Positions 1,649-36,358 of a DNA stretch of 64,000 nucleotides are shown in pieces (within the stretch, counting starts at the first letter, position 1; each line of letters begins with the position of its first letter). The position numbers were made by a program, and so were the translations under genes. Origin of the DNA: an uncultured Candidatus Saccharibacteria bacterium (GTDB taxonomy: Bacteria; Patescibacteriota; Doudnabacteria; UBA920); contig CAZKVS010000003.1 of the NCBI GenBank assembly GCA_964556325.1, forward strand, positions 4,219 to 68,218, read 5' to 3'. A model generated the notes under the pieces. That model was not told the DNA's origin. It saw only the letters and a list, made by a program, of their open reading frames with translations, and did no database searches.

Positions 1649-3079
1649 CTACACAAATAAAGCAATAATAGTGGCAACCCCGGCCACAGCCATGAGGCTC
1701 GTAATTATAAGTCCGAGTGTACGAGTAACTGGTTTACTCACATGCTCCCCCATTACTTTCTGGTTACTACTCAAACCCACAATCAAAACCAGCACTACCG
1801 GCGCTACTATACCATTGGCAACCGCTGAATAAATAAGCGCTTTAATCGGGTCTAACCCAATAAAATTCAGCAACAAGCCCACAAGCATGGAAACAATTAT
1901 TACCCCATAGAATGCATGAGCTTGTTGCCATTTACGGTACAATCCTTCTTTCCAGCCAAAACTTTCAGACATCGCGTAGGAAGCCGAACCCGCTAAGACT
2001 GGTACCGCAAGCAAGCCAGTACCTATAATACCTACCGCGAATAATAGGTAGGCTGCATTACCAGCTATGGGCTTCAGCGCAAGTACTGCATCTGCAGCGG
2101 TGTCAATATTTGTGATTCCGGCAGTAAACAAGGTCGCTGCGCAGGTCATAATAATAAAAAACATGACCACATTAGACAAAAACATACCCGACCACACGTC
2201 TACCCGCATTTGTTTTATTTCTCGTGGAGTTGTAATTTGCTGACGCGCCTCTATAGATGTCTTACCGTGTAAAATTTCTTCTTCTACTTCCTGGGAAGTC
2301 TGCCAGAAAAATAAATATGGAGAAATGGTGGTGCCCAAAATACCACAGACTAAAAATATTTGTTCTCGAGAAAAGCTAATGCTCGGTATGGTGGCGTGAC
2401 TCAGCACGGACTTCCAATCCACTGAGACACTCAATCCGGAAAATATATACGCTAAAAGCACGAGCGCTAAATATTTTAAAATACGTGCATAGCTCGCGTA
2501 GGTACTAAAAATTTGCAGCACCAAACAGAGCACTGTAAAGCCCACCACCAAAAGCGAAAAGCTTACAGAGGGTAAAAATAATTGAACACCCTTAGCCATG
2601 GCCCCTAAATCTGCTCCTATATTAAAGGCATTGGCGCCAAACAAGAGCGCAGTGCAGGTGTATAACACCCATCGCGGGTAGTGCATTCGGATGTTTGCTG
2701 CCAAGCCCCGACCGGTAACCAAACCAATGCGTGCGCACATTTCTTGGACCACGGCCATGAGCGGAAACGTAAAAACCGCCAACCACAAGAGTTGGTAACC
2801 ATACTGCGCACCGGTCTGGGAATAGGTTGCTATACCGGACGGATCATCATCCGATGCCCCTGTGGTCAGCCCTGGCCCGAGCATGTGCCAATATTCTTTT
2901 GTTTTTTCTAGCGGACTTGACGCAAACGAACTACTTCCAGTTTGTTTCATGACCGGCCCGACCGAAGAACGCTCTAAAGTTTCTCGCTCTTCAATCCTGC
3001 GGCGGAGTTTTGCCATAGATGCACTTAAACAACTACATACAGTATAACAAATTTCGAATCTCTTCACAGGTTGAAACAA
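1649..3079 (-). CDS. mntH: NRAMP-family divalent metal (Mn2+/Fe2+) transporter
   Basis: 476 aa multi-TM; GPGLTTGASDDDPSGIATYSQTGAQYGYQLLW motif typical of Nramp/MntH. Confidence 0.8.
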   Translation of the reverse strand: MFQPVKRFEICYTVCSCLSASMAKLRRRIEERETLERSSVGPVMKQTGSSSFASSPLEKTKEYWHMLGPGLTTGASDDDPSGIATYSQTGAQYGYQLLWLAVFTFPLMAVVQEMCARIGLVTGRGLAANIRMHYPRWVLYTCTALLFGANAFNIGADLGAMAKGVQLFLPSVSFSLLVVGFTVLCLVLQIFSTYASYARILKYLALVLLAYIFSGLSVSVDWKSVLSHATIPSISFSREQIFLVCGILGTTISPYLFFWQTSQEVEEEILHGKTSIEARQQITTPREIKQMRVDVWSGMFLSNVVMFFIIMTCAATLFTAGITNIDTAADAVLALKPIAGNAAYLLFAVGIIGTGLLAVPVLAGSASYAMSESFGWKEGLYRKWQQAHAFYGVIIVSMLVGLLLNFIGLDPIKALIYSAVANGIVAPVVLVLIVGLSSNQKVMGEHVSKPVTRTLGLIITSLMAVAGVATIIALFV

Positions 3080-10663: not shown

Positions 10664-11035
10664 ATGCACACATTATTCAGCACTATTTTAAACACCCCTT
10701 GGACTCTAGCCGGCCTCCTCGTTGCTATTTTTTCCGTCCCCACGCATGTTAAAATTACCAATCACGCAATTATATGTAATGTAAAAAGTTTTTGGTGGCA
10801 GTTTGGGTACTTGAAAGGTGTACGAGCGGCAAACATTGGCCAGGTTGTCTTACTCGGTCCTAAACTAGACCCGCAAGATTTGACCCACGAACTAGTGCAT
10901 GTAGAACAATATATGCGCTATCCGTTTATATACCCCTTTCTTTACTACTACGAATTAGCTACGAAAGGGTATCGGAATAATAAATTTGAAAGCGAAGCCT
11001 ATACCCGAGCTGGGAATAGGTACGGGAAAATTTAA
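10664..11035 (+). CDS. hypothetical membrane-anchored protein with HExxH motif
   Basis: HELVHVEQY motif; N-terminal TM. Confidence 0.4.
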   Translation: MHTLFSTILNTPWTLAGLLVAIFSVPTHVKITNHAIICNVKSFWWQFGYLKGVRAANIGQVVLLGPKLDPQDLTHELVHVEQYMRYPFIYPFLYYYELATKGYRNNKFESEAYTRAGNRYGKI

Positions 11036-11058
11036 AACCGCACAGCGCGGTTTTTTTA
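11034..11058 (+). terminator. terminator hairpin ccgc-acagc-gcgg + T7
   Basis: short GC stem followed by ttttttt directly after stop. Confidence 0.5.
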
Positions 11059-11231
11059 GTTTAGCCAAACCTCTTTCAAAAGTCTCTCTCTGTCATTCCC
11101 GTGAAGACGGGAATCCAGTACCGCCTTTTGCGGTACAACTAAGCAATGCCCCCGTTATCGGCTGGTGGGCCGATATGGATCCCCGCCTGCGCGAGGACGA
11201 CAGAGTACGTATTGGTCTCTTTGAAAGAGCT

Positions 11232-12416
11232 TTAATGAATTATAGAGTCAACTTTATTTCGCTTAAAATACCAGGCAGCAAGTATAGTAGACAAAGGCAC
11301 GGCCACGATGAGCGCTATACTCCCCACGAGTGTACGTACAATTTCTTCAGCTATAAATTCACTGTTTAACGTAACCCAAAGGGGTTGATGACTGGTGAGC
11401 ACAATCAGCAAAAAAAGAGGAAAAAATGCACCGGCATACGCGAGCACCAAGGTATTAATAAGCGAGGCAATGTGCTCTCGGCCAATAGACATACCCTTTC
11501 GGTATAACTGGGTCAGCGTAAGCGCGGGGCTGGTATGGTGTAACTCATCTACCGCCGCAGTTTGTCCGGTGGTAACGTCATCCAGCACTCCTAAACAGCC
11601 AATAATTATGCCACCGAAAAGCAAACCTTGTAAGTTAAAAGCACCTAACGATCCCGCCTGCAACAAATACGCTTCTTCCGATCCGTTACCAAAGAGCCGT
11701 ACGCCGTGAATAGCAAGATATGCCAAACCCTGCGCCAGCCCAAGAGTAAGCAAGGTACTAATAACCGCTAAGCTCGTTCGCTCATTAAACCCATGCGCTA
11801 AAAACAACGAAACCACCGCAATTATAAACGCTCCCACCAAACTTATAACCACTGGGTTCTGCCCCGCTAATATGCTCGGAGCGATAAAATAAATGAGAAC
11901 AAATACACTAAACGCTAACCCCACAACAGACGTAACACCGCGCCAGCGCGCAAAATATACTGCGCATAGCAAAAAGACAAGAACCAATACACCCACATAC
12001 GGCAACCGATATAAGTCTACAATCACATACGGATTGTCATTATTATTACGCGCGTCAGACAGCTGCCCCACCACCACTGTATCCCCGACTTTCAATTTTT
12101 GTATAGCAGAAGTAGTCTGGTAGTCTACGCCTACTTCCTGCTTACTCATACTGCCATCCAAAAAACGAACCTGGAGCGTTTGCGTGTACAAACTAAAATG
12201 CTTGTTTACGGTACTATCTTCCTGGGCAATACTCACAACCCGGGCTTTACTGTATTCGCTTAACTGTGCCACACCCACTTCTGCAGCCTGTACATCAAAC
12301 CCAACCTGCTGAACTGTTTGTTTGCGCACCAAAACAAAAGCTGTGGTAAGCCCCAAAACTATAACCAAGATAAACAAATACATATACCATTTGCGCATGT
12401 ACTCAGTATGCAACAC
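11232..12416 (-). CDS. YibE/F-family membrane protein
   Basis: 394 aa; N-terminal TM + extracytoplasmic segment + polytopic C-terminal half characteristic of YibE/F. Confidence 0.55.
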   Translation of the reverse strand: MLHTEYMRKWYMYLFILVIVLGLTTAFVLVRKQTVQQVGFDVQAAEVGVAQLSEYSKARVVSIAQEDSTVNKHFSLYTQTLQVRFLDGSMSKQEVGVDYQTTSAIQKLKVGDTVVVGQLSDARNNNDNPYVIVDLYRLPYVGVLVLVFLLCAVYFARWRGVTSVVGLAFSVFVLIYFIAPSILAGQNPVVISLVGAFIIAVVSLFLAHGFNERTSLAVISTLLTLGLAQGLAYLAIHGVRLFGNGSEEAYLLQAGSLGAFNLQGLLFGGIIIGCLGVLDDVTTGQTAAVDELHHTSPALTLTQLYRKGMSIGREHIASLINTLVLAYAGAFFPLFLLIVLTSHQPLWVTLNSEFIAEEIVRTLVGSIALIVAVPLSTILAAWYFKRNKVDSIIH

Positions 12417-12462
12417 GTACTAGGGTAAGTAAAGACTCAATGCAACACACCTCACTCGGAAA

Positions 12463-13470
12463 TCATTTGACACTGATCTGTCTATATATTTCTTTTATTC
12501 TTTGAACTAAAATCTCGGAATCTTGTTGTGTAGGTATACTGATTCTTAATGCATCGTTAATCAATGGTTGGTCCGTTACCTGCACAAGAATACCCGCATT
12601 CTTCAAAAGTTTTTGCCACTCACCAATAGAACCATAGTGCGGTTTGATTAAAATAAAAAAAAGATTATGTCCAAATAGATCAAAAATGCCCAATTCGGCT
12701 AGACGGTCGTGCAAATACTTTCGCGCTACACGTAATTTACCCATACGGTTCAGTATGTGTTTTCTGTTATCCAAGGCGACTAGGCCTAAATGTTGTGCAA
12801 GAGAGTTGACGTTGTATGGCGGCTTAGCATCAATTACTTTTTTGATAACATCAGGTTGAGCTATCATGTACCCCAAACGCAAACCCGCCAACCCAGCCCA
12901 TTTACTGAAGCTTCTTATAACAATCAAGTTGCTATATGTACGAATAAGATTGGCATGCGTTACACCAGCCGATTCATAGTAAGCTTCGTCCAGTAGTACC
13001 AACTTTCCCAAAGAGAGCACTTGTATTAAATTTTCTCGGGAAATTATGTCTCCAGTTGGGTTATTAGGAGAGTCAATTACAATAAGATCTACAGCGTCAA
13101 GCGAAGAGGTCAAGACAGCCGCAAGGGGAAACGCATAAGTATCCACACTACGCACGACTTCCTGGCAAGATATGTGCCTCAAGCGAGCAAAGTGATAGTA
13201 CATATGAAATGTCGGCGGGCATATTAATATACTACGCCCGGGTGAGGTAAATAAGGAAAAAACAAGGTCAATAAGTTCATCAGCGCCGTTTCCACATGCA
13301 ATAAAAGAAGGTGCAAAACCTGTATATTCGGCAAGTCTGTCCCGTAGCGTAGTGGAAGCGGGATCGGGATACACACAGAACGGCAATCGGTGTAAGACCT
13401 CCCTGTCATATAAGTCGTCGACAAAGATATTTTGCGCTGTGTTCAGTTTTAATACGCTAGGTGTTTGCAT
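12463..13470 (-). CDS. class I/II PLP aminotransferase (HisC/CobD-like)
   Basis: IDSPNNPTG motif, SFSKWAGLAGLRLGY lysine motif. Confidence 0.75.
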   Translation of the reverse strand: MQTPSVLKLNTAQNIFVDDLYDREVLHRLPFCVYPDPASTTLRDRLAEYTGFAPSFIACGNGADELIDLVFSLFTSPGRSILICPPTFHMYYHFARLRHISCQEVVRSVDTYAFPLAAVLTSSLDAVDLIVIDSPNNPTGDIISRENLIQVLSLGKLVLLDEAYYESAGVTHANLIRTYSNLIVIRSFSKWAGLAGLRLGYMIAQPDVIKKVIDAKPPYNVNSLAQHLGLVALDNRKHILNRMGKLRVARKYLHDRLAELGIFDLFGHNLFFILIKPHYGSIGEWQKLLKNAGILVQVTDQPLINDALRISIPTQQDSEILVQRIKEIYRQISVK

Positions 13471-14473
13471 GTGTACATAGAATTACTGGCAGTGAGGGCA
13501 AAGTGGGGCCATCTTTATTCATGCGGACATGAACGAACTCCGGTCGCCTATGTGCCTGAGCATATTGCATACTGGACAAGATTTGAGTTGACCATTCGCC
13601 CGAAGTAGTAACAAAAACACATCCGGTGCCGACCCAGAACTGTACTATTGTTCCTTTAGCAGTAGCATAGTGTAAATAGTCACCATTACCTCGCCTGAAT
13701 ATAAGCGGAATACCATCCGTCATACAACTCGCAATATATGCTTTATCCGCCCGGAGAAATGCCATATCCCTTAGCAGCGAACGAGTTGATAACGCCCGCC
13801 TGTCCGATATAGACGCATGACTATCAGCCCAAAACCTATTTCTTTCAGATTTACGTAGCAAAACTTCTCGCTCTGCTTCAGACAACTTGTAAAAAGCATG
13901 AGTTACTTCGGGCACCAAAGAGTTAATTTCTGATTCTAGATGACCCACTGTACGAGAGGCGACCACATCTTCATACGAGATTTTTATAGGCAAGGACGCA
14001 AGACCCTTATTAAACCATGCAATATAGCTTAAAAAACGCTCCGCGTAGCTTCGCAGGCCTTCCGGCGGATAACCGTTAATATACTGTATAATTGGTCCGT
14101 CACTTCTATATACCAATTCCACACCTGGTGGATATGCGGCTGCAATGTGACACATTACCTCCGACATGTATCGTAAGTGAAAAAGTTCAGCCCAATCAGG
14201 ATATGGTGTGCTCGCAATACTCGACAGCTTATACCCACCGAACAAAGCCCAAAAGCGAAGGGGCTGGTTACCCTGCCAAATACGTGTTATGGCTGCGAGT
14301 AAGTCTCGTTTTGCCTGAATAGAGACGGGAGACTTTCTGAACCGTTTCGATAGCACCAATTGCAAAAGCTCAGCGGGACTCGAGACCGGAGCCTGCTTAC
14401 TAGCCACTTTTTCAAAGAAGGGCGTCAATGTGTTTAACGAAGTTAAATATGATACGCAGGCGTTATTCAGCAT
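13457..14473 (-). CDS. hypothetical protein (orphan, 338 aa)
   Basis: long ORF co-oriented and overlapping neighbours by a few codons; no recognisable motif. Confidence 0.5.
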   Translation of the reverse strand: MLNNACVSYLTSLNTLTPFFEKVASKQAPVSSPAELLQLVLSKRFRKSPVSIQAKRDLLAAITRIWQGNQPLRFWALFGGYKLSSIASTPYPDWAELFHLRYMSEVMCHIAAAYPPGVELVYRSDGPIIQYINGYPPEGLRSYAERFLSYIAWFNKGLASLPIKISYEDVVASRTVGHLESEINSLVPEVTHAFYKLSEAEREVLLRKSERNRFWADSHASISDRRALSTRSLLRDMAFLRADKAYIASCMTDGIPLIFRRGNGDYLHYATAKGTIVQFWVGTGCVFVTTSGEWSTQILSSMQYAQAHRRPEFVHVRMNKDGPTLPSLPVILCTHANT

Positions 14474-15761
14474 GGTGGTATGGCCTAGCCTTAACTTCCT
14501 CCAGATAATCCCGTTCTAAGTTCTCAGGATATGGCATATGATAATACACGCGAGCTTCATCCATTTGTCGTTTCACTTTATGCAAGTCAGCCTCCGCCAA
14601 AGAAATAACAAATCGCACCAGGTCTCTTAACTTCTTTCCATGAATAATAGCGGGGCGTACCCGAATACCTGCATACTTCAATAAATAGTAACTAAACAAC
14701 TCCCCTGCAGAAACATCTTTTGCGTATGTACAAAAACTGATTGGGGCAGGAACAAATAAATTAATACCGAAACCAGGAGTAGTAATAGGCCAGCCCAAAT
14801 CCCGCAGCATGCCTACACTCATGTGCATACGGTTTTCCAACTCTTTTTTAATCTCTGAAACAGACACATGCTCCAGCAATAACTTTGCGATATACTTGCT
14901 CGGAGTGGGAAAAATACATAAAGAATTATCTTGAAACTCCCTTACCGAAGCAGCCATATTGGGATGTGTAATACCGAACCCAAGTCGTAAACCGGGAGCA
15001 CCAAGTTCTTTTGACATATTGCATAAAACCATAACCTGAGTTCTCTCTTGTACGGCAATATCTCTCAATATAGTTAAAGGGTCAATAGTCTTTTTGTGCA
15101 CAGTAAACAAAGCATCGGCGTCATACAACAAAGTGACACTATACTTGTTTACCAACTTAACTAATTGGCCTATGTATTCTGAGGACAGACCGAGGCCGCG
15201 ATTATGGTTCAGGTAAATGAACGCAATATTACCCTGCTCTTGTAGTAAAATTTGCTCTAGGTCATCTAAAGCAAGCATGTCAGATTCGTCCTGACGTACT
15301 GTTCTCACTTCTTTTCCTTGAGATAAGAAACAGGCGACTTGGCCAGCATTCAAAACTTCAGGCACTAAAACCAACGACTCCTTCTTAAAAGTGCAAAAAG
15401 TAGTCAATGCATCATATACTCCACGAAATAAAACTACCTCATTCTTTTCTATCGCGATATGGAGCTTATCTTGCAAAAACGAAACGACTGAATGTTCGAC
15501 ATCAAAAGAACCCGATATATACCCCGGGTAAGCACTACAGGCTGATAACAGACTATCTAACGCCCGGGGGGCAAGCCGCAAGTGGTGTTGAGTTATATGC
15601 AAAGTATGCATATCACCAGCTGAACCGAAGTTCAGATATTGATCTGAACTCTTATAACGAGCTACCAGCAAATTATGCTCATGTTCGTGTCGTAATAGAT
15701 TATCTACCCGGGCAGAGAAACGTATCATAGAACTAATCCTTAAACACAAACTCAGGGTCAA
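14463..15761 (-). CDS. class I/II PLP aminotransferase with ~90-aa N-terminal extension
   Basis: CNMSKELGAPGLRLGFGITHP (SKxxxxPGxRxG) motif. Confidence 0.7.
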   Translation of the reverse strand: MTLSLCLRISSMIRFSARVDNLLRHEHEHNLLVARYKSSDQYLNFGSAGDMHTLHITQHHLRLAPRALDSLLSACSAYPGYISGSFDVEHSVVSFLQDKLHIAIEKNEVVLFRGVYDALTTFCTFKKESLVLVPEVLNAGQVACFLSQGKEVRTVRQDESDMLALDDLEQILLQEQGNIAFIYLNHNRGLGLSSEYIGQLVKLVNKYSVTLLYDADALFTVHKKTIDPLTILRDIAVQERTQVMVLCNMSKELGAPGLRLGFGITHPNMAASVREFQDNSLCIFPTPSKYIAKLLLEHVSVSEIKKELENRMHMSVGMLRDLGWPITTPGFGINLFVPAPISFCTYAKDVSAGELFSYYLLKYAGIRVRPAIIHGKKLRDLVRFVISLAEADLHKVKRQMDEARVYYHMPYPENLERDYLEEVKARPYHHAE

Positions 15762-16704
15762 TCTGCTGGCTCAAATCACCAAAAGCACTTACATTATGCG
15801 GCTTCTGTGAAATAATTTTATGCAATGCCTGCAATCTCTTAAGCTTCTTATTTTTATCAACTTTTATGGAACTCAAAACAAACTGTTGCACTTGATCGAA
15901 CATCTGCTGGATGGCTGGATATGACTTCACCTGGACTTCTAGCCCATCTCTCAACGATCTACGCAAATCTGGCAAATATGGCAAAGATGCAGCAATTGTA
16001 TCTCCATATTTTTGCAAATAAGCATGATCGGAATCAGTCTCAACCTTGTTTGCTATCGCCTTAATGCGATCTGCAATACCAAACTCCTGACCGAGCCGTA
16101 AGTAATCTTCCAATACGGAAGTACTTTCTACTGTTGGCTCTACCACCAAAAATAGCAAATCAAAGTGCGCATACATAGAAGTCGCAAACGCGTCTGCTCC
16201 GGCAGTCATATCAACTACAACATAATCATTACTGCCTTCATTCGTATGTGCAAGCAACGTTTCTGCAATTTCCATATTCACGTGATAACACCGAATTCCT
16301 AAATCGTATTGAATGGGTACCCCGACTTGCAGGAACGACAGCTTGTCTTTACGATATGCAATTTTATTTAATAGTTCATTTGATTCATCCAAGGTGACCA
16401 AGCGAGAACCCTTGCCGGGTGGGGTCGTGTTAATAATACTCTCCGGGCTTGTAATTCGTGGATTATCGCCTTGTACGTAAGTCTTAATAGCAGCAGACGC
16501 TGAGGAATCAGTGAGGCTACTGACCGAGTCTGTAATATGCAATAGTTTACTCAAATGCATATTTAAATCAGCATCAATGGCTAGTACACGACTACCCTGC
16601 TGTAAAGAATGCTTTATAAAAAGAGAGGCTATGGTGGACTTCCCACTTCCGCCTTTACCTACAAATGCAATTTTCATATTATCTATAATGCAAATTATTT
16701 GCAT
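15733..16704 (-). CDS. CooC/MinD/ParA-like P-loop ATPase (possible metallochaperone-type); likely true start at MKIAFVGKGG (~16677)
   Basis: KIAFVGKGGSGKSTIASL deviant Walker A, DADLNMHL, VVVDMTAGADAF. Confidence 0.65.
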   Translation of the reverse strand: MQIICIIDNMKIAFVGKGGSGKSTIASLFIKHSLQQGSRVLAIDADLNMHLSKLLHITDSVSSLTDSSASAAIKTYVQGDNPRITSPESIINTTPPGKGSRLVTLDESNELLNKIAYRKDKLSFLQVGVPIQYDLGIRCYHVNMEIAETLLAHTNEGSNDYVVVDMTAGADAFATSMYAHFDLLFLVVEPTVESTSVLEDYLRLGQEFGIADRIKAIANKVETDSDHAYLQKYGDTIAASLPYLPDLRRSLRDGLEVQVKSYPAIQQMFDQVQQFVLSSIKVDKNKKLKRLQALHKIISQKPHNVSAFGDLSQQIDPEFVFKD

Positions 16705-16705
16705 T
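16689..16705. promoter_or_regulatory. perfect 8-N-8 inverted repeat ATGCAAAT-t-ATTTGCAT (candidate Fur-family operator)
   Basis: read directly from sequence; lies in the divergent region between the ATPase gene and fur. Confidence 0.4.
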
Positions 16706-16740
16706 TATATTAACGCAACATAATCGCTTTTGTCAAATAG

Positions 16741-16769
16741 TTGCATATAACAGTTACACATGGTATAAT
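16741..16769 (+). promoter_or_regulatory. sigma70-like promoter TTGCAT-17-TATAAT ending 6 nt before fur ATG (leaderless?)
   Basis: TTGCAT 16741-16746, 17-nt spacer, TATAAT 16764-16769. Confidence 0.35.
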
Positions 16770-16775
16770 ACACAC

Positions 16776-17192
16776 ATGAGTGTACAGTTCATCCCTGAAA
16801 ACATACTCAAAGATGCTGGCTTCCGTGTAACTACAGGACGTGTAGCGGTTTTAGGCTTGCTGGCTGAGTCCCCTGCTCCCCTGGCCATTAAAGATATCTT
16901 GCACAAGATTAAGCACGTACGACTGGATCAAGCGACAGTCTATCGCATGCTCGATGCCATGCGGGAAAAAGGACTTGTTCAAATGGTGAACATGGAGCAC
17001 GACCATACTCACTGGGAGCTCACTAGTCACCATCACCATGCTATTTGCGAACAGTGCGGTAAGGTAATTGATATTTCTAAATGCGACCTACAAAAACTGG
17101 AAGCGGAGATAAAAAAAGTGAGCGGTTTTACCACCATACGCCGGCACTCTTTAGAGTTTTTTGGTCTCTGTAAGAGTTGCGGCAAAAAGTGA
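16776..17192 (+). CDS. fur: Fur-family metalloregulator (Fur/Zur/PerR)
   Basis: 138 aa; winged-helix N-terminus, HHHAICEQCGKVIDIS..CKSCGKK metal sites. Confidence 0.85.
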   Translation: MSVQFIPENILKDAGFRVTTGRVAVLGLLAESPAPLAIKDILHKIKHVRLDQATVYRMLDAMREKGLVQMVNMEHDHTHWELTSHHHHAICEQCGKVIDISKCDLQKLEAEIKKVSGFTTIRRHSLEFFGLCKSCGKK

Positions 17193-17243
17193 CTCGTTAT
17201 TAGTTTATCCGCTGACTGAATTCATATCCCTTTCATACGTGTT

Positions 17244-17429
17244 TTGTATCATTGCAATGTTAGATTTAAAGATATAAAAAATATGCTAGGAATACTTGCG
17301 TTAGTAGTGCTACTCTTTTGGATTGGCGGTTTCGCTTTCCATGTGCTGGGTGGATTTATCCATATATTCTTAGTTGTTGCTATTATTATGACAATTATGC
17401 ATTTTATCACGGGGAAAAAGGCCGTATAG
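17244..17429 (+). CDS. small two-TM membrane protein (hypothetical)
   Basis: 61 aa, strongly hydrophobic. Confidence 0.3.
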   Translation: MYHCNVRFKDIKNMLGILALVVLLFWIGGFAFHVLGGFIHIFLVVAIIMTIMHFITGKKAV

Positions 17430-17481
17430 CCACAAAAAATAATAAATCGCCGTGTGGCAATTTTTTTGTTAGACTAGTGTA

Positions 17482-18018
17482 ATGCCTTTAGATATAACAC
17501 TCTTTTATTTCTTTAACCATCTTCCACACACGAGCGTTCTCGATACTGTAGCTACGTGGATACACTACACTACCCGGTATGGTTTAATTTACTATCCTTT
17601 CCTTATTGCCTTACTTCTTTCAAAACAGAAACCAAAAGTAGTGCTCGGTAAACTCCTCGCTGTATCGGCTGCAGGCACATATATACTTACCGATCTTGTT
17701 CTTAAAAACATTGCACAGCGGCCTCGACCATTTCAAACGCTTATAGATGTCTTCTACCTCCCCCCTGCGCCGAGTAGTTACTCTTTTCCATCCGGCCAGG
17801 CAGCGGTGGCTTTTGCTCTCGCAACTACTATTTGGCTTCGGTATCCAAAATCAATACGTAGCTACAGTGCATATGCACTCGCCACACTCATAGCCATAGA
17901 CCGTATGTATATGGGCCATCACTATTTTTCCGATGTATTCGTCGGGGGGCTCATTGGTGCGCTCATAGCCTACATAACCAACTACTACTTTACTCACCAT
18001 AAAAAAACCTCTGCCTAG
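17482..18018 (+). CDS. PAP2-family phosphatase
   Basis: KNIAQRPRPF, PSGQ, DRMYMGHHYFSDV (KxxxxxxRP / PSG / SRxxxxxHxxxD motifs). Confidence 0.75.
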   Translation: MPLDITLFYFFNHLPHTSVLDTVATWIHYTTRYGLIYYPFLIALLLSKQKPKVVLGKLLAVSAAGTYILTDLVLKNIAQRPRPFQTLIDVFYLPPAPSSYSFPSGQAAVAFALATTIWLRYPKSIRSYSAYALATLIAIDRMYMGHHYFSDVFVGGLIGALIAYITNYYFTHHKKTSA

Positions 18019-18031
18019 GCAGAGGTTTTTA
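18001..18031. terminator. bidirectional terminator: perfect CCTCTGCCTAGGCAGAGG palindrome flanked by A7/T5
   Basis: between convergent PAP2 and multicopper oxidase genes, overlaps PAP2 stop. Confidence 0.65.
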
Positions 18032-18040
18032 ATTCGTACT

Positions 18041-19657
18041 TTACTGCACGCTAAAGTTAAACATCATCCCGCTTTCTAAATGCTCAGGTATGTGACAGTG
18101 CGCCATCCAGTCGCCCAGGTTAGACATATCAACCAAAAGATCTACAGTCGTACCGGCCGGAATAAGCACGGTGTCTTTCCAAGCCAAGTTAGTTTGTAAC
18201 TTGTCGTTCACGCTAGCTACCAAAAACCGCTGCCCGTGAAAATGGAACGGATGCTGCATAGGGTGCATGGAGTTCGCGTCGTTGGTAACTCGCACCTTTA
18301 CCATATCCCCTTTTTTAAACTGCCAATGAATATCCATATTACTTAAGTTGGTAGCCGTATCTACTACTTTCCAGGTAATTGTTTTAGAAGTAGAACCGGA
18401 GTTCATGGCGCCATGCTTATCTTCCCACTCAATACCGTCAGGACCCACCGGCGCCATGTTCATCATCATGCTATTGGACATAGCACTTCCATCCGACATA
18501 GTATGGGCGCCGCTCATACCACTCATGTTCATGGTATCACTCATACCACCCATAGCCACAGTCAGGTTTATAGTTTTATCGGGTGCCTTGTTCAAGCTGG
18601 TTCGAAACGGATCCATGCTTGCCACTACACTTTTGTGCGTATGAAGAATATCAAACTCTTTTTTGTAGGAAGCTGCTACTGGGTCACTGTTTACCGCTAC
18701 CTTACCCAAAATAACTGTCTCATCGGGCATACGGTTTTCTAAGTACGCTTGGCCCGCTTGCGCAAAATAAACATCTACAATTGCGCGTTCCGAAGGTCCA
18801 AGCGTCACCGTATCTACCATTTGCTCGCGTTCATATGCACCATTATCTGAACCCACCAGCTTGAGCTTTGCACCAGAAACACCAAACCGAAACACCCTAC
18901 TCCCGGCTGCATTGGTTATGTACATACGTACTACTTCACCGGCCTGAGCAGTGAGTATGTAGTCGCTACTTCCGTTTACCAACATTACGTTTCCATACCG
19001 GCCCATAAGTGCGTGGTCTACACTATCAGAAAAATACGGCGCCACCACGCCATTCTGCATGAGTATGTCATCAAGCACGAGCGGCACTTCCCTGTTTACC
19101 GGGGCGAACTCGTTTGCCTCTTTGGGCGCTACTATAAAGTTGCCATACAAACCCAAGTCCTGAGTGTAGTCTTCTCGCAAATGCGGATGGTACCAAAACA
19201 CTCCGCTGTCTGGAAAGGCAATTTTATAATCAAAACTTTCCCCCGGTTTTACTTCCGGCTGTGTTACGCCCGGCACGCCGTCAAAAGCGTTATTCAGGCG
19301 CACTCCGTGACTATGTATGGTGGTAGGAATATCAATTTTATTTGTAAAACGAATAGTGACCTCCGCACCCTGCGCAACTCGAATGGTCGGCCCCGGCACT
19401 GAGCCGTTGTAAGCCAACATGCGTACTTTGGTACCATTTATTTCTTTTACCACCGGCTCGGCAACCAAGTTATAGGTGTCACCATTTTTGAGCTCTGCTG
19501 TTTCCGTCTGCCTCGCTTCAGGGAGTCCTTGTACACTACTACTAAACTGTTTATCTGAAACAGACGATGCAGAATGATGTGTTTTATTTTGCGCATATAT
19601 CCATGCGCCACCTACCAGTACTATAACTGCTAATACTGACCCAATTTTCTTTGTCAT
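18041..19657 (-). CDS. multicopper oxidase (CueO/CopA-like) with Met-rich insert and N-terminal membrane anchor
   Basis: HPHLREDYTQDLGLYG, HCHIPEHLESGMMF copper sites; MGGMSDTMNMSGMSGAHTMSDGSAMSNSMMMNM. Confidence 0.8.
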   Translation of the reverse strand: MTKKIGSVLAVIVLVGGAWIYAQNKTHHSASSVSDKQFSSSVQGLPEARQTETAELKNGDTYNLVAEPVVKEINGTKVRMLAYNGSVPGPTIRVAQGAEVTIRFTNKIDIPTTIHSHGVRLNNAFDGVPGVTQPEVKPGESFDYKIAFPDSGVFWYHPHLREDYTQDLGLYGNFIVAPKEANEFAPVNREVPLVLDDILMQNGVVAPYFSDSVDHALMGRYGNVMLVNGSSDYILTAQAGEVVRMYITNAAGSRVFRFGVSGAKLKLVGSDNGAYEREQMVDTVTLGPSERAIVDVYFAQAGQAYLENRMPDETVILGKVAVNSDPVAASYKKEFDILHTHKSVVASMDPFRTSLNKAPDKTINLTVAMGGMSDTMNMSGMSGAHTMSDGSAMSNSMMMNMAPVGPDGIEWEDKHGAMNSGSTSKTITWKVVDTATNLSNMDIHWQFKKGDMVKVRVTNDANSMHPMQHPFHFHGQRFLVASVNDKLQTNLAWKDTVLIPAGTTVDLLVDMSNLGDWMAHCHIPEHLESGMMFNFSVQ

Positions 19658-20135: not shown

Positions 20136-20169
20136 AGCATGGCGCTCGCGCTTAGCGCGAGTAATACCA

Positions 20170-20244
20170 CGCTTAGCGTGGTGCCCGTAGCTCAATGGTA
20201 GAGCACCGCTCTGTGGCAGCGGCTACGCGGGTCCGATTCCCGTC
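20170..20244 (+). tRNA. tRNA-His (GTG) with encoded G-1 and CCA
   Basis: hand-folded cloverleaf; anticodon loop CTGTGGC; acceptor GTGCCCG/CGGGCAC. Confidence 0.85.
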
Positions 20245-25843: not shown

Positions 25844-26438
25844 GACCTGCCTACTACTCCTCGTCCTCTTCATTTTCATCTATGCTTGCGTGTTTGGTTT
25901 TATAACCATAGTACACCGCAATAGCGAGGAGCAAGAAGGTAAACAGTAGAGAAGCGTATTCTTTCATATACATAATTGGTAGTTTACTTACTTATACAAA
26001 TAAGTCAGTAAATTACGAATCGTTACATGAGACGCTATACTGCAGGACCAAGTAGGTACGTATGTACTGCATGGACACCTCGCTTGGTATTTCACTCAGA
26101 AATACCACTTATGACTAAAGTGCGGGGAGTAACTCCGCATAGAGGTATTTTTGGATTTCACGAACCAGCATTACGCTGAATTATATTCCAAAAGTCGACG
26201 AGGTTAGCTGACGGGCTCGGTTATGGAATTTACTTAACATGTAGTTACCCACATGTACTCGCCCCGGCCCCACAAAGTATGGTAGGGAATTTGGTTCCCC
26301 CGCGTTACACTGCCCTATTACGATAGGCAGGTGGTAACTTAGACTTACCTTGAAAGGATTATACGCAGGGCTCCATAAGCTGTCAAACCTCATAAGTGGA
26401 TATCTTTTACCACATTTTTCAAAAAAAAATACCCGTAC

Positions 26439-34164: not shown

Positions 34165-34797
34165 CTACACCAGCTTTTTGCCGCCCTTCGTCCATTCCAA
34201 AATGGTACCCGCAGCTATTTCTATAGGCTCCGCCGGACGAAACCATTTTTCTTGCGTCTTGCTGAATAAAAAATAATGTCTTGCTTCATCTAACGCGACA
34301 GGAATTTCCCACACGTCCTCCACGCTAGTCTCCCACTTAACGGAGTCGAAGCGCGCTAAATTAAAGGGAACAGAGTATTCCCGCAGGTTCTTTTTTCCAG
34401 TTGTATTTTCAAAATATTCATGAAAAAAAGAAAGCGCTAGCTCGCGAAGAGTTTTATATATTGGTTCGCGATACCGAAGTACCGCATGGTTTGTCTTACT
34501 TATTGCACCCCAGTATCCACCGGCTTGGAATAACGCGACCACATGGTCTTGGTCCGGCCGCTTTGCGCGTAAATCCATAACCAATGGACGAGCACCGTGA
34601 AAACGTAACACACTTGCTGCAAACATTGCGCCCTCCATACAGTGCGCTGTCCCCGTCTCCACCACTCGCAACGGCGACATGCATGTCTCGCCGGTACGTT
34701 CAAAGTTGGCCGGTAATGTATTTAAATAGTCCTGAATTTTCGCAGGATTATTGAGCTTGGTATACAACCGAATTAAATGGTGCGGAAGAATAGACAT
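34165..34797 (-). CDS. hypothetical protein (possible Cys/His/Asp hydrolase fold)
   Basis: 210-aa ORF; conserved-looking CMEGAMF / DHVVALF segments. Confidence 0.4.
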   Translation of the reverse strand: MSILPHHLIRLYTKLNNPAKIQDYLNTLPANFERTGETCMSPLRVVETGTAHCMEGAMFAASVLRFHGARPLVMDLRAKRPDQDHVVALFQAGGYWGAISKTNHAVLRYREPIYKTLRELALSFFHEYFENTTGKKNLREYSVPFNLARFDSVKWETSVEDVWEIPVALDEARHYFLFSKTQEKWFRPAEPIEIAAGTILEWTKGGKKLV

Positions 34798-34822
34798 CTA
34801 CTTATACTATAGCAAACCCGAC

Positions 34823-36358
34823 ATGGTACAATACAGCAGTATGCAAATCTTTCACTCAAAAATATATTTCCTGAGCACAGGACTTTTAGTAGGTATGTGC
34901 AGCATGGGCCTAGAGCTCTGTGCGAGTAGGCTACTTGCTCCTCACTTTGGCACTTCCGTTGTGGTCTGGACAAACGTAATAGGAGTAGTCTTGCTTTCCT
35001 TAAGCCTCGGTTATTATTTAGGCGGTAAACTTGCCGAACGCCAAAGCAACACGCGGATACTTGCCTGGCTTCTCTACACAGGCAGTGTATTGACGCTTTT
35101 CATACCGCTTGTTGCCCCATTCTTGCTTCAATCGGTATTTATTCGTTATGGTTCACCTCATATTATACTCACCCTCTTACTTGGCCCACTTATAGCGAGC
35201 ATAGTGCTTTTTGGGTTACCGGTTTTTCTTATGGGTACTATAAGCCCTTACCTACTTACACTTCTGACCCAAAAATTTGGCCATGTAGGTAGCACTTCGG
35301 GCCAACTCTTTGCCTTATCTACTATAGGCGGACTACTGGGTACATTTCTGCCCACACTCCTACTCGTTCCTTGGCTCGGCACACGCGTAACTATTACACT
35401 CTTTGGCCTACTTCTCGGACTCATAAGCTTGCCACATCTAGGAGCAAAAAAGAGGATTATCCAGGCCGCCATTGCGTTAGCACTACTCACCGCAGCACAA
35501 ATACTCCTCCCCCAAAACACAACAGAAGTTGCGTCAGCAGAAACTGCCTACCAACGAGTGGCCATTAACAGCCCTCGCCAAGGCCTCCACTACTTACAGC
35601 TAGACGCCGGCTTCGGCGTCCAGTCTGTCTACGACCCTGAGTCCATACTCACCGGCTATTATTACGACTATGCATCCCTGCTTCCCTATCTTCTGAACCG
35701 AGATTTAAAAAAAGAGCCGGCACAGGTGCTCATTGTGGGCTTGGCCGGAGGAACCATTGCAAGACAAATGCATTATTTCTTTGACTCAGAAGTCTCACTC
35801 CATGGTGTTGAGCTAGATCCGGGAGTTACGCGTATGGCAAATGACTATATGGGTTTACGAGATACGCCAATACAAATCACCCATGGCGACGGCAGACAAG
35901 TACTCGCAGAAGACACAAACACATACGACATAATTATAGTTGACACCTATTTTAACGACCTACAAATACCCTGGACCATGACTACAGAGGAATTTTGGCG
36001 TGTCGTACAAAATCACTTAAAACCTGACGGTATTGCTGCCATGAACATAGCCGCACTCGGAGCAAGTAAAAGCGCATTGGCGGATGCGATAACAAACACT
36101 CAAGCCCATGTGTTCCCGTACGTGTACGAGGCCAAGTTAAAAGAAGGCAAAAATTCCAACCACTTAGTTATTTTAAGCAGCACCAATCCTAATGCTACAG
36201 TACGCTTCAGCGCTCTTCCACCTTCAGAGATTGCCCCGCTTGGAGAACTACTGGCGCATGAATTAACACGAATCAGTCCAAATTCAATAGTAGCCACGCT
36301 GACCGATGACAAAGCACCTATAGAATGGCTTATGGCACGCGACGGACTCTCTCACTAA
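34823..36358 (+). CDS. spermidine-synthase-like aminopropyltransferase fused to N-terminal polytopic membrane domain
   Basis: VLIVGLAGGTIARQM..GVELDPGV..IIIVDTY; start set at ATG 34823. Confidence 0.6.
   Translation: MVQYSSMQIFHSKIYFLSTGLLVGMCSMGLELCASRLLAPHFGTSVVVWTNVIGVVLLSLSLGYYLGGKLAERQSNTRILAWLLYTGSVLTLFIPLVAPFLLQSVFIRYGSPHIILTLLLGPLIASIVLFGLPVFLMGTISPYLLTLLTQKFGHVGSTSGQLFALSTIGGLLGTFLPTLLLVPWLGTRVTITLFGLLLGLISLPHLGAKKRIIQAAIALALLTAAQILLPQNTTEVASAETAYQRVAINSPRQGLHYLQLDAGFGVQSVYDPESILTGYYYDYASLLPYLLNRDLKKEPAQVLIVGLAGGTIARQMHYFFDSEVSLHGVELDPGVTRMANDYMGLRDTPIQITHGDGRQVLAEDTNTYDIIIVDTYFNDLQIPWTMTTEEFWRVVQNHLKPDGIAAMNIAALGASKSALADAITNTQAHVFPYVYEAKLKEGKNSNHLVILSSTNPNATVRFSALPPSEIAPLGELLAHELTRISPNSIVATLTDDKAPIEWLMARDGLSH

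Follow-up and report, generated by a model that had tools for sequence, protein, structure and literature searches.

A Fur-linked gene cluster with a CooC-like ATPase and a distant IsnA/PvcA-like protein, a candidate metal-limitation operon in an uncultured Saccharibacteria genome

The window analysed in the present study is a 64-kb stretch of contig CAZKVS010000003.1 from an uncultured Candidatus Saccharibacteria bacterium, and our subject is a cluster of four consecutive open reading frames (ORFs) on its minus strand (12463-16704), evident from the ORF list and from Pfam matches, together with a divergently transcribed Fur-family regulator gene on the plus strand (16776-17192; 138 aa, Pfam FUR 3.8e-25). 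In the direction of transcription the four genes encode a CooC-like deviant-Walker-A P-loop ATPase (longest ORF 15733-16704), a divergent class I/II pyridoxal phosphate (PLP) aminotransferase (AT1; longest ORF 14463-15761), a 338-aa protein that profile and structure-model comparisons place distantly in the IsnA/PvcA/Dit1 superfamily (13457-14473), and a HisC-family PLP aminotransferase of 335 aa (AT2; 12463-13470). Behind them on the same strand lies a gene for an integral membrane protein of the YibE/F family (11232-12416; Pfam YibE_F 7.8e-69). By comparison with related genomes, the Fur regulator and a promoter-overlapping palindromic candidate operator are conserved together with the distinctive CooC-like ATPase.

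A first-pass annotation of this DNA had correctly described four minus-strand genes facing a divergent Fur gene, and several of the gene boundaries were revised. In each of the 35 ATPase homologues aligned, the protein begins with MK[IV]AF (MK[IV]AFVGKGG), and the true start is therefore placed at M10, position 16677 (MKIAFVGKGG), giving a product of 314 aa (15733-16677) and a Fur-ATPase spacer of 98 bp in place of the 70 bp first stated. The gene overlaps of 11-29 nt originally reported were retained in part: AT1 overlaps the 338-aa gene by 11 nt and the latter overlaps AT2 by 14 nt, which indicates co-translation, whereas the 29-nt overlap between the ATPase and AT1 depends on a TTG start for AT1. 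An alternative ATG at 15728, preceded by AAGGA and following the ATPase stop after a 4-nt gap, yields a 421-aa product (14463-15728); a gene call made independently for this contig chose it too, and it is most likely the correct start. The N-terminal extension of AT1, given earlier as 90 aa, shrinks to ~30-40 residues and is common to its relatives (408-426 aa), the Pfam match starting at profile position 41. Between AT2 and YibE/F the gap is 46 nt to the start of the longest YibE/F ORF, or 79 nt to the independently called ATG at 12383, and no convincing terminator was found there in a scan of 11000-17600. YibE/F is probably the last gene of the operon.

The boundary between the Fur and ATPase genes holds a perfect 8-1-8 palindrome, ATGCAAATTATTTGCAT (ATGCAAAT-T-ATTTGCAT; 16688-16704), with the core TGCAA-N5-TTGCA at 16689-16703. 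It had been noticed in the first-pass annotation as lying over the ATPase start; with that start at 16677, it lies 11 nt ahead of the start codon, the best -10 box being 3 nt upstream of it. This box belongs to a promoter-like site on the minus strand (16707-16736) made up of a -35 element TTGACA (16736-16731), an 18-nt spacer and a -10 element TAATAT (16712-16707), which is the best sigma-70-like match in 11000-17600 and agrees with the consensus at 10 of 12 positions. A scan for further copies of the palindrome had been proposed, and within the window it is the sole match even with 3 mismatches allowed. As an isolated feature the palindrome is weak evidence, because the window holds five perfect 8-1-8 palindromes where ~1 is expected; its significance derives from its conservation across genomes and from its position. 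A leader RNA hairpin sequestering the ribosome-binding site was considered and rejected, as transcription is predicted to begin within the palindrome.

An imperfect second candidate site, TGTCAAATAGTTGCA (16731-16745), was read from the sequence, its left arm having 2 mismatches and its right arm being perfect. It overlaps both -35 regions, and paired or extra operator-like sites also occur in four of the related loci described below (L012, L034, L119, L120). The candidate fur promoter, likewise read from the sequence, is on the plus strand at 16741-16769 (TTGCAT, 17 nt, TG-n-TATAAT), and was omitted by the consensus scan as its -35 element matches at only 3 of 6 positions; it is nevertheless probably the fur promoter. 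Since its -10 box stops 6 nt before the ATG, the fur transcript would have little or no leader. A 9-nt direct repeat, GTGTTGCAT, is present twice in the AT2-YibE/F spacer on the minus strand (12408-12416 and 12440-12448). The repeat holds the operator half-site TTGCAT, its second copy spans the GTG of the longest YibE/F ORF, and it may be an internal regulatory site.

We compared the operator across a set of 121 related loci comprising 1.68 Mb, designated here by L numbers. The core TGCRA-N5-TYGCA has 14 matches in this set, 12 of which sit 11-60 nt upstream of orthologous ATPase starts (window/L001, L002/3, L004, L012, L034 with two, L036, L115/6 and L120/1). The remaining two comprise one in L013, 477 nt upstream and ahead of a small ORF, and one that is unrelated, while L119 has an operator site with one mismatch. 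Recurrence of the palindrome, suggested initially as a check, was therefore found, with the core upstream of orthologous ATPases in at least 8 other distinct loci. The L036 operator is a symmetric variant (TGCGA...TCGCA), a change of the kind expected for a dimer-bound site, and a -10 box read by eye in L115 (TATAGT) falls inside the operator spacer. Boxes of the Fur family are inverted repeats of the 7-1-7 or 9-1-9 type that overlap promoter elements (PMC6103462), and the window palindrome departs from the actinobacterial Zur-box consensus TGaNAANNNTTNtCA (PMC5472717) at two symmetric positions alone, 3 and 13. Upstream of the ATPase this consensus is matched 1.65 times per kb, versus 0.11 times per kb over the remainder of the loci, with matches in 25 of the 79 scanned ATPase loci, nearly all of them actinobacterial; no clear Zur box was seen in the main Streptomyces ATPase group. 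A Zur chromatin immunoprecipitation peak of S. coelicolor (peak_035) maps to a divergent gene pair, 24 nt ahead of SCO3560 ('ATP-binding protein') and 79 nt from SCO3559 (PMC5472717 supplement). The Streptomyces ATPase loci (L018-L091) have a divergent ORF ~102-103 nt upstream, a geometry like that of SCO3560/SCO3559. This divergent neighbour had no Pfam match, and SCO3560 is a possible member of the ATPase family.

The ATPase has the Walker A sequence KIAFVGKGGSGKST and a DADLNMHL motif, both as originally described, and a Pfam CbiA match (3.8e-9). Its best solved relative is CooC1 (PDB 3KJE; E 4e-9 over the full length), with which it shares the deviant Walker A pattern GKGGxGKS/T (here GKGGSGKST) including the signature lysine, the SIMIBI fold, the DxD switch, and a presumed metal-binding motif at the same position in the predicted dimer interface. 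At that position Cys130-Tyr131-His132 aligns with the CYC of CooC and is invariant in 36 of 36 family members, which also conserve His144, His286 and a C-terminal extension of ~60 aa that set them apart from CooC. CooC-like is thus an adequate label to the extent that CooC is the closest solved structure, and identity with CooC itself was rejected, as Cys-x-Cys is replaced by Cys-Tyr-His and the genomic context is wrong: the family is tied to Fur-family regulators and zinc-type neighbours, and no CO dehydrogenase/acetyl-CoA synthase genes were called in the ATPase loci with listed genes. There are additional weak NCBIfam matches to ArsA and Get3-fold families. The best 120 matches in a protein search were all 308-369 aa (E < 1e-54), and the family comprises at least 499 matching stretches in species-representative genomes. 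The best 80 loci belong mostly to Streptomyces and other Actinobacteria, with a few Patescibacteria, one metagenome-assembled genome (MAG) of the Ktedonobacteraceae (Chloroflexota) and other MAGs, and the regulator/ATPase arrangements closest to that of the window are in MAGs of Saccharimonadales and other Patescibacteria.

Gene neighbourhoods in these genomes point to the ATPase, the regulator and the operator being an old conserved core. The most similar locus is L115, in which YibE/F and Fur on one strand face the ATPase, AT1, a PvcA-like protein and a 509-aa CobW-like protein, with the same operator present; its proteins are 35-44% identical to those of the window (YibE/F 43%), and the PvcA-like protein (P0123) is one of the two closest relatives of the 338-aa protein. 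Saccharibacteria-type loci have Fur, the ATPase and a gene resembling short-chain dehydrogenases/reductases (SDR-like), L012 has ArsP_1+DUF1980, Fur and the ATPase, and L005 (Nocardia) has a 101-aa ribosomal protein S14 gene, the ATPase and ArsP_1+DUF1980. L004 combines the ATPase with a 2-hydroxyacid dehydrogenase, an AT1 homologue, PALP and CobW. In L013, L036 and L119 the ATPase is followed by an ornithine/diaminopimelate (Orn/DAP)-type decarboxylase and a PALP-rhodanese protein, joined by Aminotran_5 in L036 and L119, and L036 additionally has Fur, a ZIP transporter and YibE/F. The PLP-dependent decarboxylase and the PALP-rhodanese fusion thus recur behind the same ATPase and operator, a cassette that resembles precursor steps of ethylenediamine-disuccinate (EDDS) or staphyloferrin B-type ligands.

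Conservation of the cluster as a unit, which the first-pass annotation had considered essential, was found in part. Fur, the ATPase, AT1, a PvcA-like gene and YibE/F occur together again in L115, but the four-gene set is not widespread. AT1 recurs in three genomes and the IsnA-like gene in two, while AT2 is specific to the window genome, CobW standing in its place in L115; YibE/F orthologues are found beside the Fur/ATPase genes in L115 and L036. The suspected link to metal homeostasis gained support from CobW, ZIP, ArsP_1/DUF1980, the ribosomal protein S14 gene and Zur-box-like sites in other genomes. COG0523, ZIP and ribosomal paralogues adjoin the orthologous ATPases in L004, L005, L036 and L115, and not that of the window. 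Most Streptomyces loci had no homologue of Fur, AT1, AT2, the PvcA-like protein or YibE/F within 8 kb of the ATPase, these five being the only neighbours looked for there, with naive ORF calls that are noisy in high-GC DNA.

The regulator carries the motif HHHH-xx-CxxC, which all ATPase-linked regulators share, and a C-terminal CxxC. Cysteines C91/C94 and C132/C135 are invariant among the aligned ATPase-linked Fur proteins and form the structural CxxC...CxxC site expected of a Fur/Zur regulator. Divergent transcription of a Fur gene and the ATPase is seen in the window, L002, L012, L115, L119 and L120, and in L036 the Fur gene is within the operon. The position of the Zur sensing cysteine is that in the structures of Mycobacterium tuberculosis and S. 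coelicolor Zur; the window regulator lacks a Zur-type sensing site with cysteine at this position, and a Micromonospora regulator neighbouring the ATPase has it. As a candidate identity PerR was rejected, because its His37 is Val in the window regulator and a separate PerR-like paralogue exists in L002. That second Fur paralogue is encoded in a string of thioredoxin-reductase-like, Fur, rhodanese and glutaredoxin genes (L002 2478-4447), and is probably a PerR-type regulator separate from the ATPase-linked Fur.

The 338-aa protein had been called unrecognisable and a candidate novel enzyme. A word-indexed homologue search found nothing and there was no NCBIfam match, while an exhaustive HMMER search recovered 285 cluster representatives (50% identity), 160 of them at E <= 1e-10. 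Among 61 aligned relatives 26 match PF05141 (DIT1_PvcA), and the family profile detects PIsnA (9dhm, 9.5e-9) and PvcA (6.6e-5). An AlphaFold2 model built from the family alignment reached a predicted local distance difference test score (pLDDT) of 92.6, compared with a pLDDT of 36 for a single-sequence model, and the Foldseek matches to it are PIsnA and PvcA (E 5e-12 to 1e-11, template modelling score 0.60-0.70), followed far behind by tyrosyl-tRNA synthetases at E > 3e-4. The protein retains the N-terminal motif shared by the IsnA/PvcA/Dit1 proteins (PF05141; PDB 3E59, 9DH4, 9DHM), namely K82...P92-D93-x-A95-E96...Y114-x-P116-G117...S124-D125-G126, the shared elements being the lysine, PD-x-AE, Y-x-PG and SDG. 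Its family has motifs of its own, FGGYK and VQFWVG-G. On the evidence of profiles and the predicted model it is a distant member of the IsnA/PvcA/Dit1 superfamily of isonitrile synthases, forming a separate family; it is no longer unrecognisable, and a new fold is contradicted by the fold it has in common with PIsnA and PvcA. IsnA-like genes elsewhere (L007-L011, L092-L114 and L118) are mostly stand-alone and in variable context in candidate-phyla-radiation-type genomes. No conserved neighbour of the stand-alone genes emerged at these loci; a HAD phosphatase gene adjoins the IsnA-like gene in L008 and L118, and in L009 an EamA transporter gene overlaps it from upstream.

Both aminotransferases are apparently intact, the PLP lysine being present in each. 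AT1 matches Pfam Aminotran_1_2 (2.8e-15) with its lysine in NMSKELGAPGLR, its profile matches Asp/aromatic aminotransferases, and homologues adjoin the ATPase in L115 (35% identity) and L004 (30%). AT2 has a stronger Pfam match (2.8e-43), an SFSK lysine motif and a HisC structure as solved relative (PDB 8bj1, 1.1e-42). Against TIGR01141 (hisC) it scores 243 bits, below the cut-off of 276.55, and we regard it as a HisC-family member.

Taken together, we lean modestly towards the cluster being a metal-limitation operon that makes an amino-acid-derived ligand and is kept repressed by the divergent Fur-family protein, with zinc as the likeliest metal. Under this proposal a metal-bound regulator dimer would bind the 7-1-7-type palindrome TGCAAAT-T-ATTTGCA, and the occupied site, just past the -10 box of the ATPase promoter, would block transcription until metal shortage allowed the operon to be expressed. 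AT1 and AT2 would provide an alpha-amino acid from its 2-oxo acid or interconvert the two, and the IsnA-like enzyme might modify the amino group by condensation with a sugar phosphate, which would give a metal-binding derivative of the amino acid, of isonitrile or N-formyl type. The ATPase dimer could hold metal at a Cys2His2 site in its interface, serving as a metallochaperone or as energiser of a permease such as YibE/F, which in turn may carry the product or the metal across the membrane. Zinc is the metal best supported by the CobW, ZIP, ribosomal protein S14 and Zur-box contexts, and an N-modified amino acid, with an isonitrile or formamide as the natural guess, is what the enzymes suggest. 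Known roles of isonitriles include metal acquisition, the zinc-binding kupyaphores being one example (PMC12946266, PMC8872721). Of the metal-regulated small-molecule pathway initially put forward, the Fur-controlled unit is upheld, while a metallophore is what we infer as its product.

Each part of the cluster comes from a known superfamily, and the logic of a Fur-repressed metal-limitation operon is familiar. As in a Zur regulon with COG0523, a Fur-family repressor gene stands beside its presumed target and a 7-1-7-type palindrome is located at the promoter, with CobW-like, ZIP and S14 neighbours in related loci and Zur-box-like sites upstream of actinobacterial orthologues; the window differs in having a CooC-type NTPase instead of a COG0523 GTPase, box arms of TGCAA/TTGCA and a regulator without the sensing cysteine of Zur. 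Metallophore clusters, such as the Zur-controlled pseudopaline and staphylopine (PMC5719457, PMC5666155) and the kupyaphores (PMC8872721), likewise produce amino-acid-derived ligands under metal limitation, with the isonitrile as a metal ligand in the last case. In contrast to these, the window is without a nicotianamine-synthase-like protein, an opine dehydrogenase, a ScoE-type Fe/2-oxoglutarate (Fe/2OG) isonitrile enzyme and a non-ribosomal peptide synthetase.

A number of observations weigh against the proposal of a zinc-limitation operon that makes a ligand. The 338-aa protein scores only 22.7 bits against PF05141, under the cut-off of 26.4, and is 14-16% identical to solved isonitrile synthases. 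Neither the window cluster nor L115 contains an Fe/2OG oxygenase (PvcB/IsnB) or P450 partner, and no recognisable metallophore import system is present in the cluster. At 27 of the 29 loci with IsnA-like relatives the gene stands alone among unrelated neighbours, a distribution no less compatible with a housekeeping role than with secondary metabolism. Gene content downstream of the ATPase also varies, consisting of an SDR-like gene, a decarboxylase with PALP-rhodanese, or sets with AT1, and it follows that the ATPase may not serve the enzymes at all. A search of the 64-kb window gave no second copy of the operator, so that no wider regulon is visible in it. Regarding the metal, the best solved relative of the regulator is B. 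subtilis PerR (6.6e-20), followed by Fur proteins, and all seven ATPase-linked Fur proteins outside Actinobacteria have Glu in place of the Zur sensing Cys, a Glu-type site that leaves iron, manganese and nickel as candidate metals. With Glu outside Actinobacteria and Cys in Micromonospora, the metal cannot be read from the regulator sequence.

These observations bear on four other explanations. That the regulator senses iron, manganese, nickel or peroxide, in a Fur, Mur, Nur or PerR-type response, is an unlikely reading that still carries appreciable weight. In addition to the likeness to PerR and Fur proteins, the predicted sensing site consists of Glu and two His as in Fur/PerR, without the Zur-type Cys; CooC relatives handle nickel and neither the CobW family nor ZIP is strictly zinc-specific; and genes for a multicopper oxidase and for superoxide dismutase/peroxiredoxin are found nearby in the window and L115. 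The loss of PerR His37 to Val argues against a peroxide sensor, as does the separate Fur paralogue of L002, whose thioredoxin-reductase/glutaredoxin operon better fits PerR, and the actinobacterial ATPases are behind Zur-box-like sites, by the 101-aa S14 gene and by a Cys-containing Zur-type regulator. The cluster might otherwise be a metal-sparing or metabolic-adaptation operon, under the same regulation, whose enzymes would substitute for or bypass a metal-dependent step or salvage amino acids while the ATPase, as a COG0523-like chaperone, re-allocates scarce metal to essential clients. Metal-independent paralogues and chaperones are typical members of Zur regulons (PMC6103462). The IsnA-like relatives that mostly stand alone in small genomes without biosynthetic neighbours, the downstream cassettes that differ among genomes while the ATPase is constant, and the lack of an importer or PvcB-like tailoring enzyme in the cluster would be in keeping with such an operon. 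We consider it rather improbable, however, given that no known metal-dependent enzyme is replaced by the IsnA-like protein or these aminotransferases, that the PALP and Orn/DAP-type decarboxylase cassettes are like metallophore precursor steps (staphyloferrin B, EDDS), and that the co-occurrence of YibE/F in three genomes suggests a transport step.

The same permease genes invite the view that the ATPase is an ArsA-like energiser of a permease, YibE/F here and ArsP_1+DUF1980 elsewhere, for ATP-driven metal uptake, with the enzymes as accessory passengers. The ATPase gene adjoins ArsP_1+DUF1980 in two phyla (L005, L012) and is near YibE/F in the window, L115 and L036; ArsA and Get3 belong to the same dimeric deviant-Walker-A fold class with metal(loid) at the dimer interface, and the weak NCBIfam matches agree with this. 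The ATPase differs from ArsA of the ArsA-ArsB system in being single-domain and weakly similar, its putative tie to the membrane is one of gene adjacency, most Streptomyces ATPases have no homologue of YibE/F, the one permease looked for there, within 8 kb, and the closest solved relative, CooC, is a soluble chaperone; on these grounds we judge an ArsA-like role decidedly unlikely. It would be most surprising, finally, if the cluster were a set of functionally unrelated neighbours beside a coincidental AT-rich inverted repeat. The excess of perfect 8-1-8 palindromes in the window and the absence of a second copy of the motif would be consistent with chance, but of the 14 motif matches in 1.68 Mb, 12 are no more than 60 nt ahead of orthologous genes belonging to different phyla-level lineages, L115 repeats the synteny, and genes overlap by 11 and 14 nt. 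Operator placement and the L115 synteny effectively refute this reading.

To our knowledge, COG0523 GTPases are the only established zinc metallochaperone family. A more far-reaching version of our proposal is that the Cys-Tyr-His ATPases are a widespread second class of Fur/Zur-controlled zinc-handling NTPases alongside COG0523, serving as metallochaperones or permease energisers and distributed from candidate-phyla-radiation-type bacteria to Streptomyces, and that here they head an operon with a new IsnA-like clade making an isonitrile-type zinc ligand; we put this forward as a speculation that is probably wrong in at least some of its parts. A Cys-Tyr-His CooC-like subfamily with a cross-phyla tie to Fur/Zur-type control, the TGCAA-N5-TTGCA operator, and an IsnA-like clade recruited into a Fur-type metal operon all appear undescribed in the literature searched, in which nothing usable was found on a CooC-Zur link or on DUF1980 with Zur. 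A CooC-type NTPase family behind Fur/Zur-type operators, from tiny uncultivated bacteria to Streptomyces, is a new candidate for metal homeostasis and the most testable lead of this study, being accessible to genetics in actinomycetes. The operator could be used to predict metal regulons in uncultivated lineages that lack a characterised regulator. The IsnA-like family carries the isonitrile-synthase superfamily into genomes thought to be almost devoid of secondary metabolism, which raises the question of whether such organisms use isonitrile or formamide metal ligands or perform other chemistry with the same fold.

Several further features of the window were recorded. Directly beyond the Fur gene (17482-19657) are a PAP2 phosphatase gene on the plus strand and a three-domain multicopper oxidase gene on the minus strand, with no operator copy; a copper link to isonitrile chemistry through this oxidase is conceivable but unsupported. 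An NRAMP-family metal transporter gene is present at 1649-3079 on the minus strand, a gene for a fused major facilitator superfamily/spermidine-synthase protein at 34751-36358 on the plus strand, and a type IV pilus gene set (PilB-, PilC-like) at ~47-51 kb on the minus strand. Taken with the nearest relatives of the regulator and the ATPase, these three fit a small-genome organism of the Saccharibacteria kind. The cyclic di-AMP riboswitch RF00379 was detected at 26178-26325 on the minus strand, scoring 40.4 bits where the gathering score is 38. A neighbouring pair of GC-rich, perfect 8-1-8 palindromes with the common core CGCTTAGCG lies at 20145-20161 and 20166-20182, the latter abutting or overlapping the 5' end of a tRNA-His at 20181.

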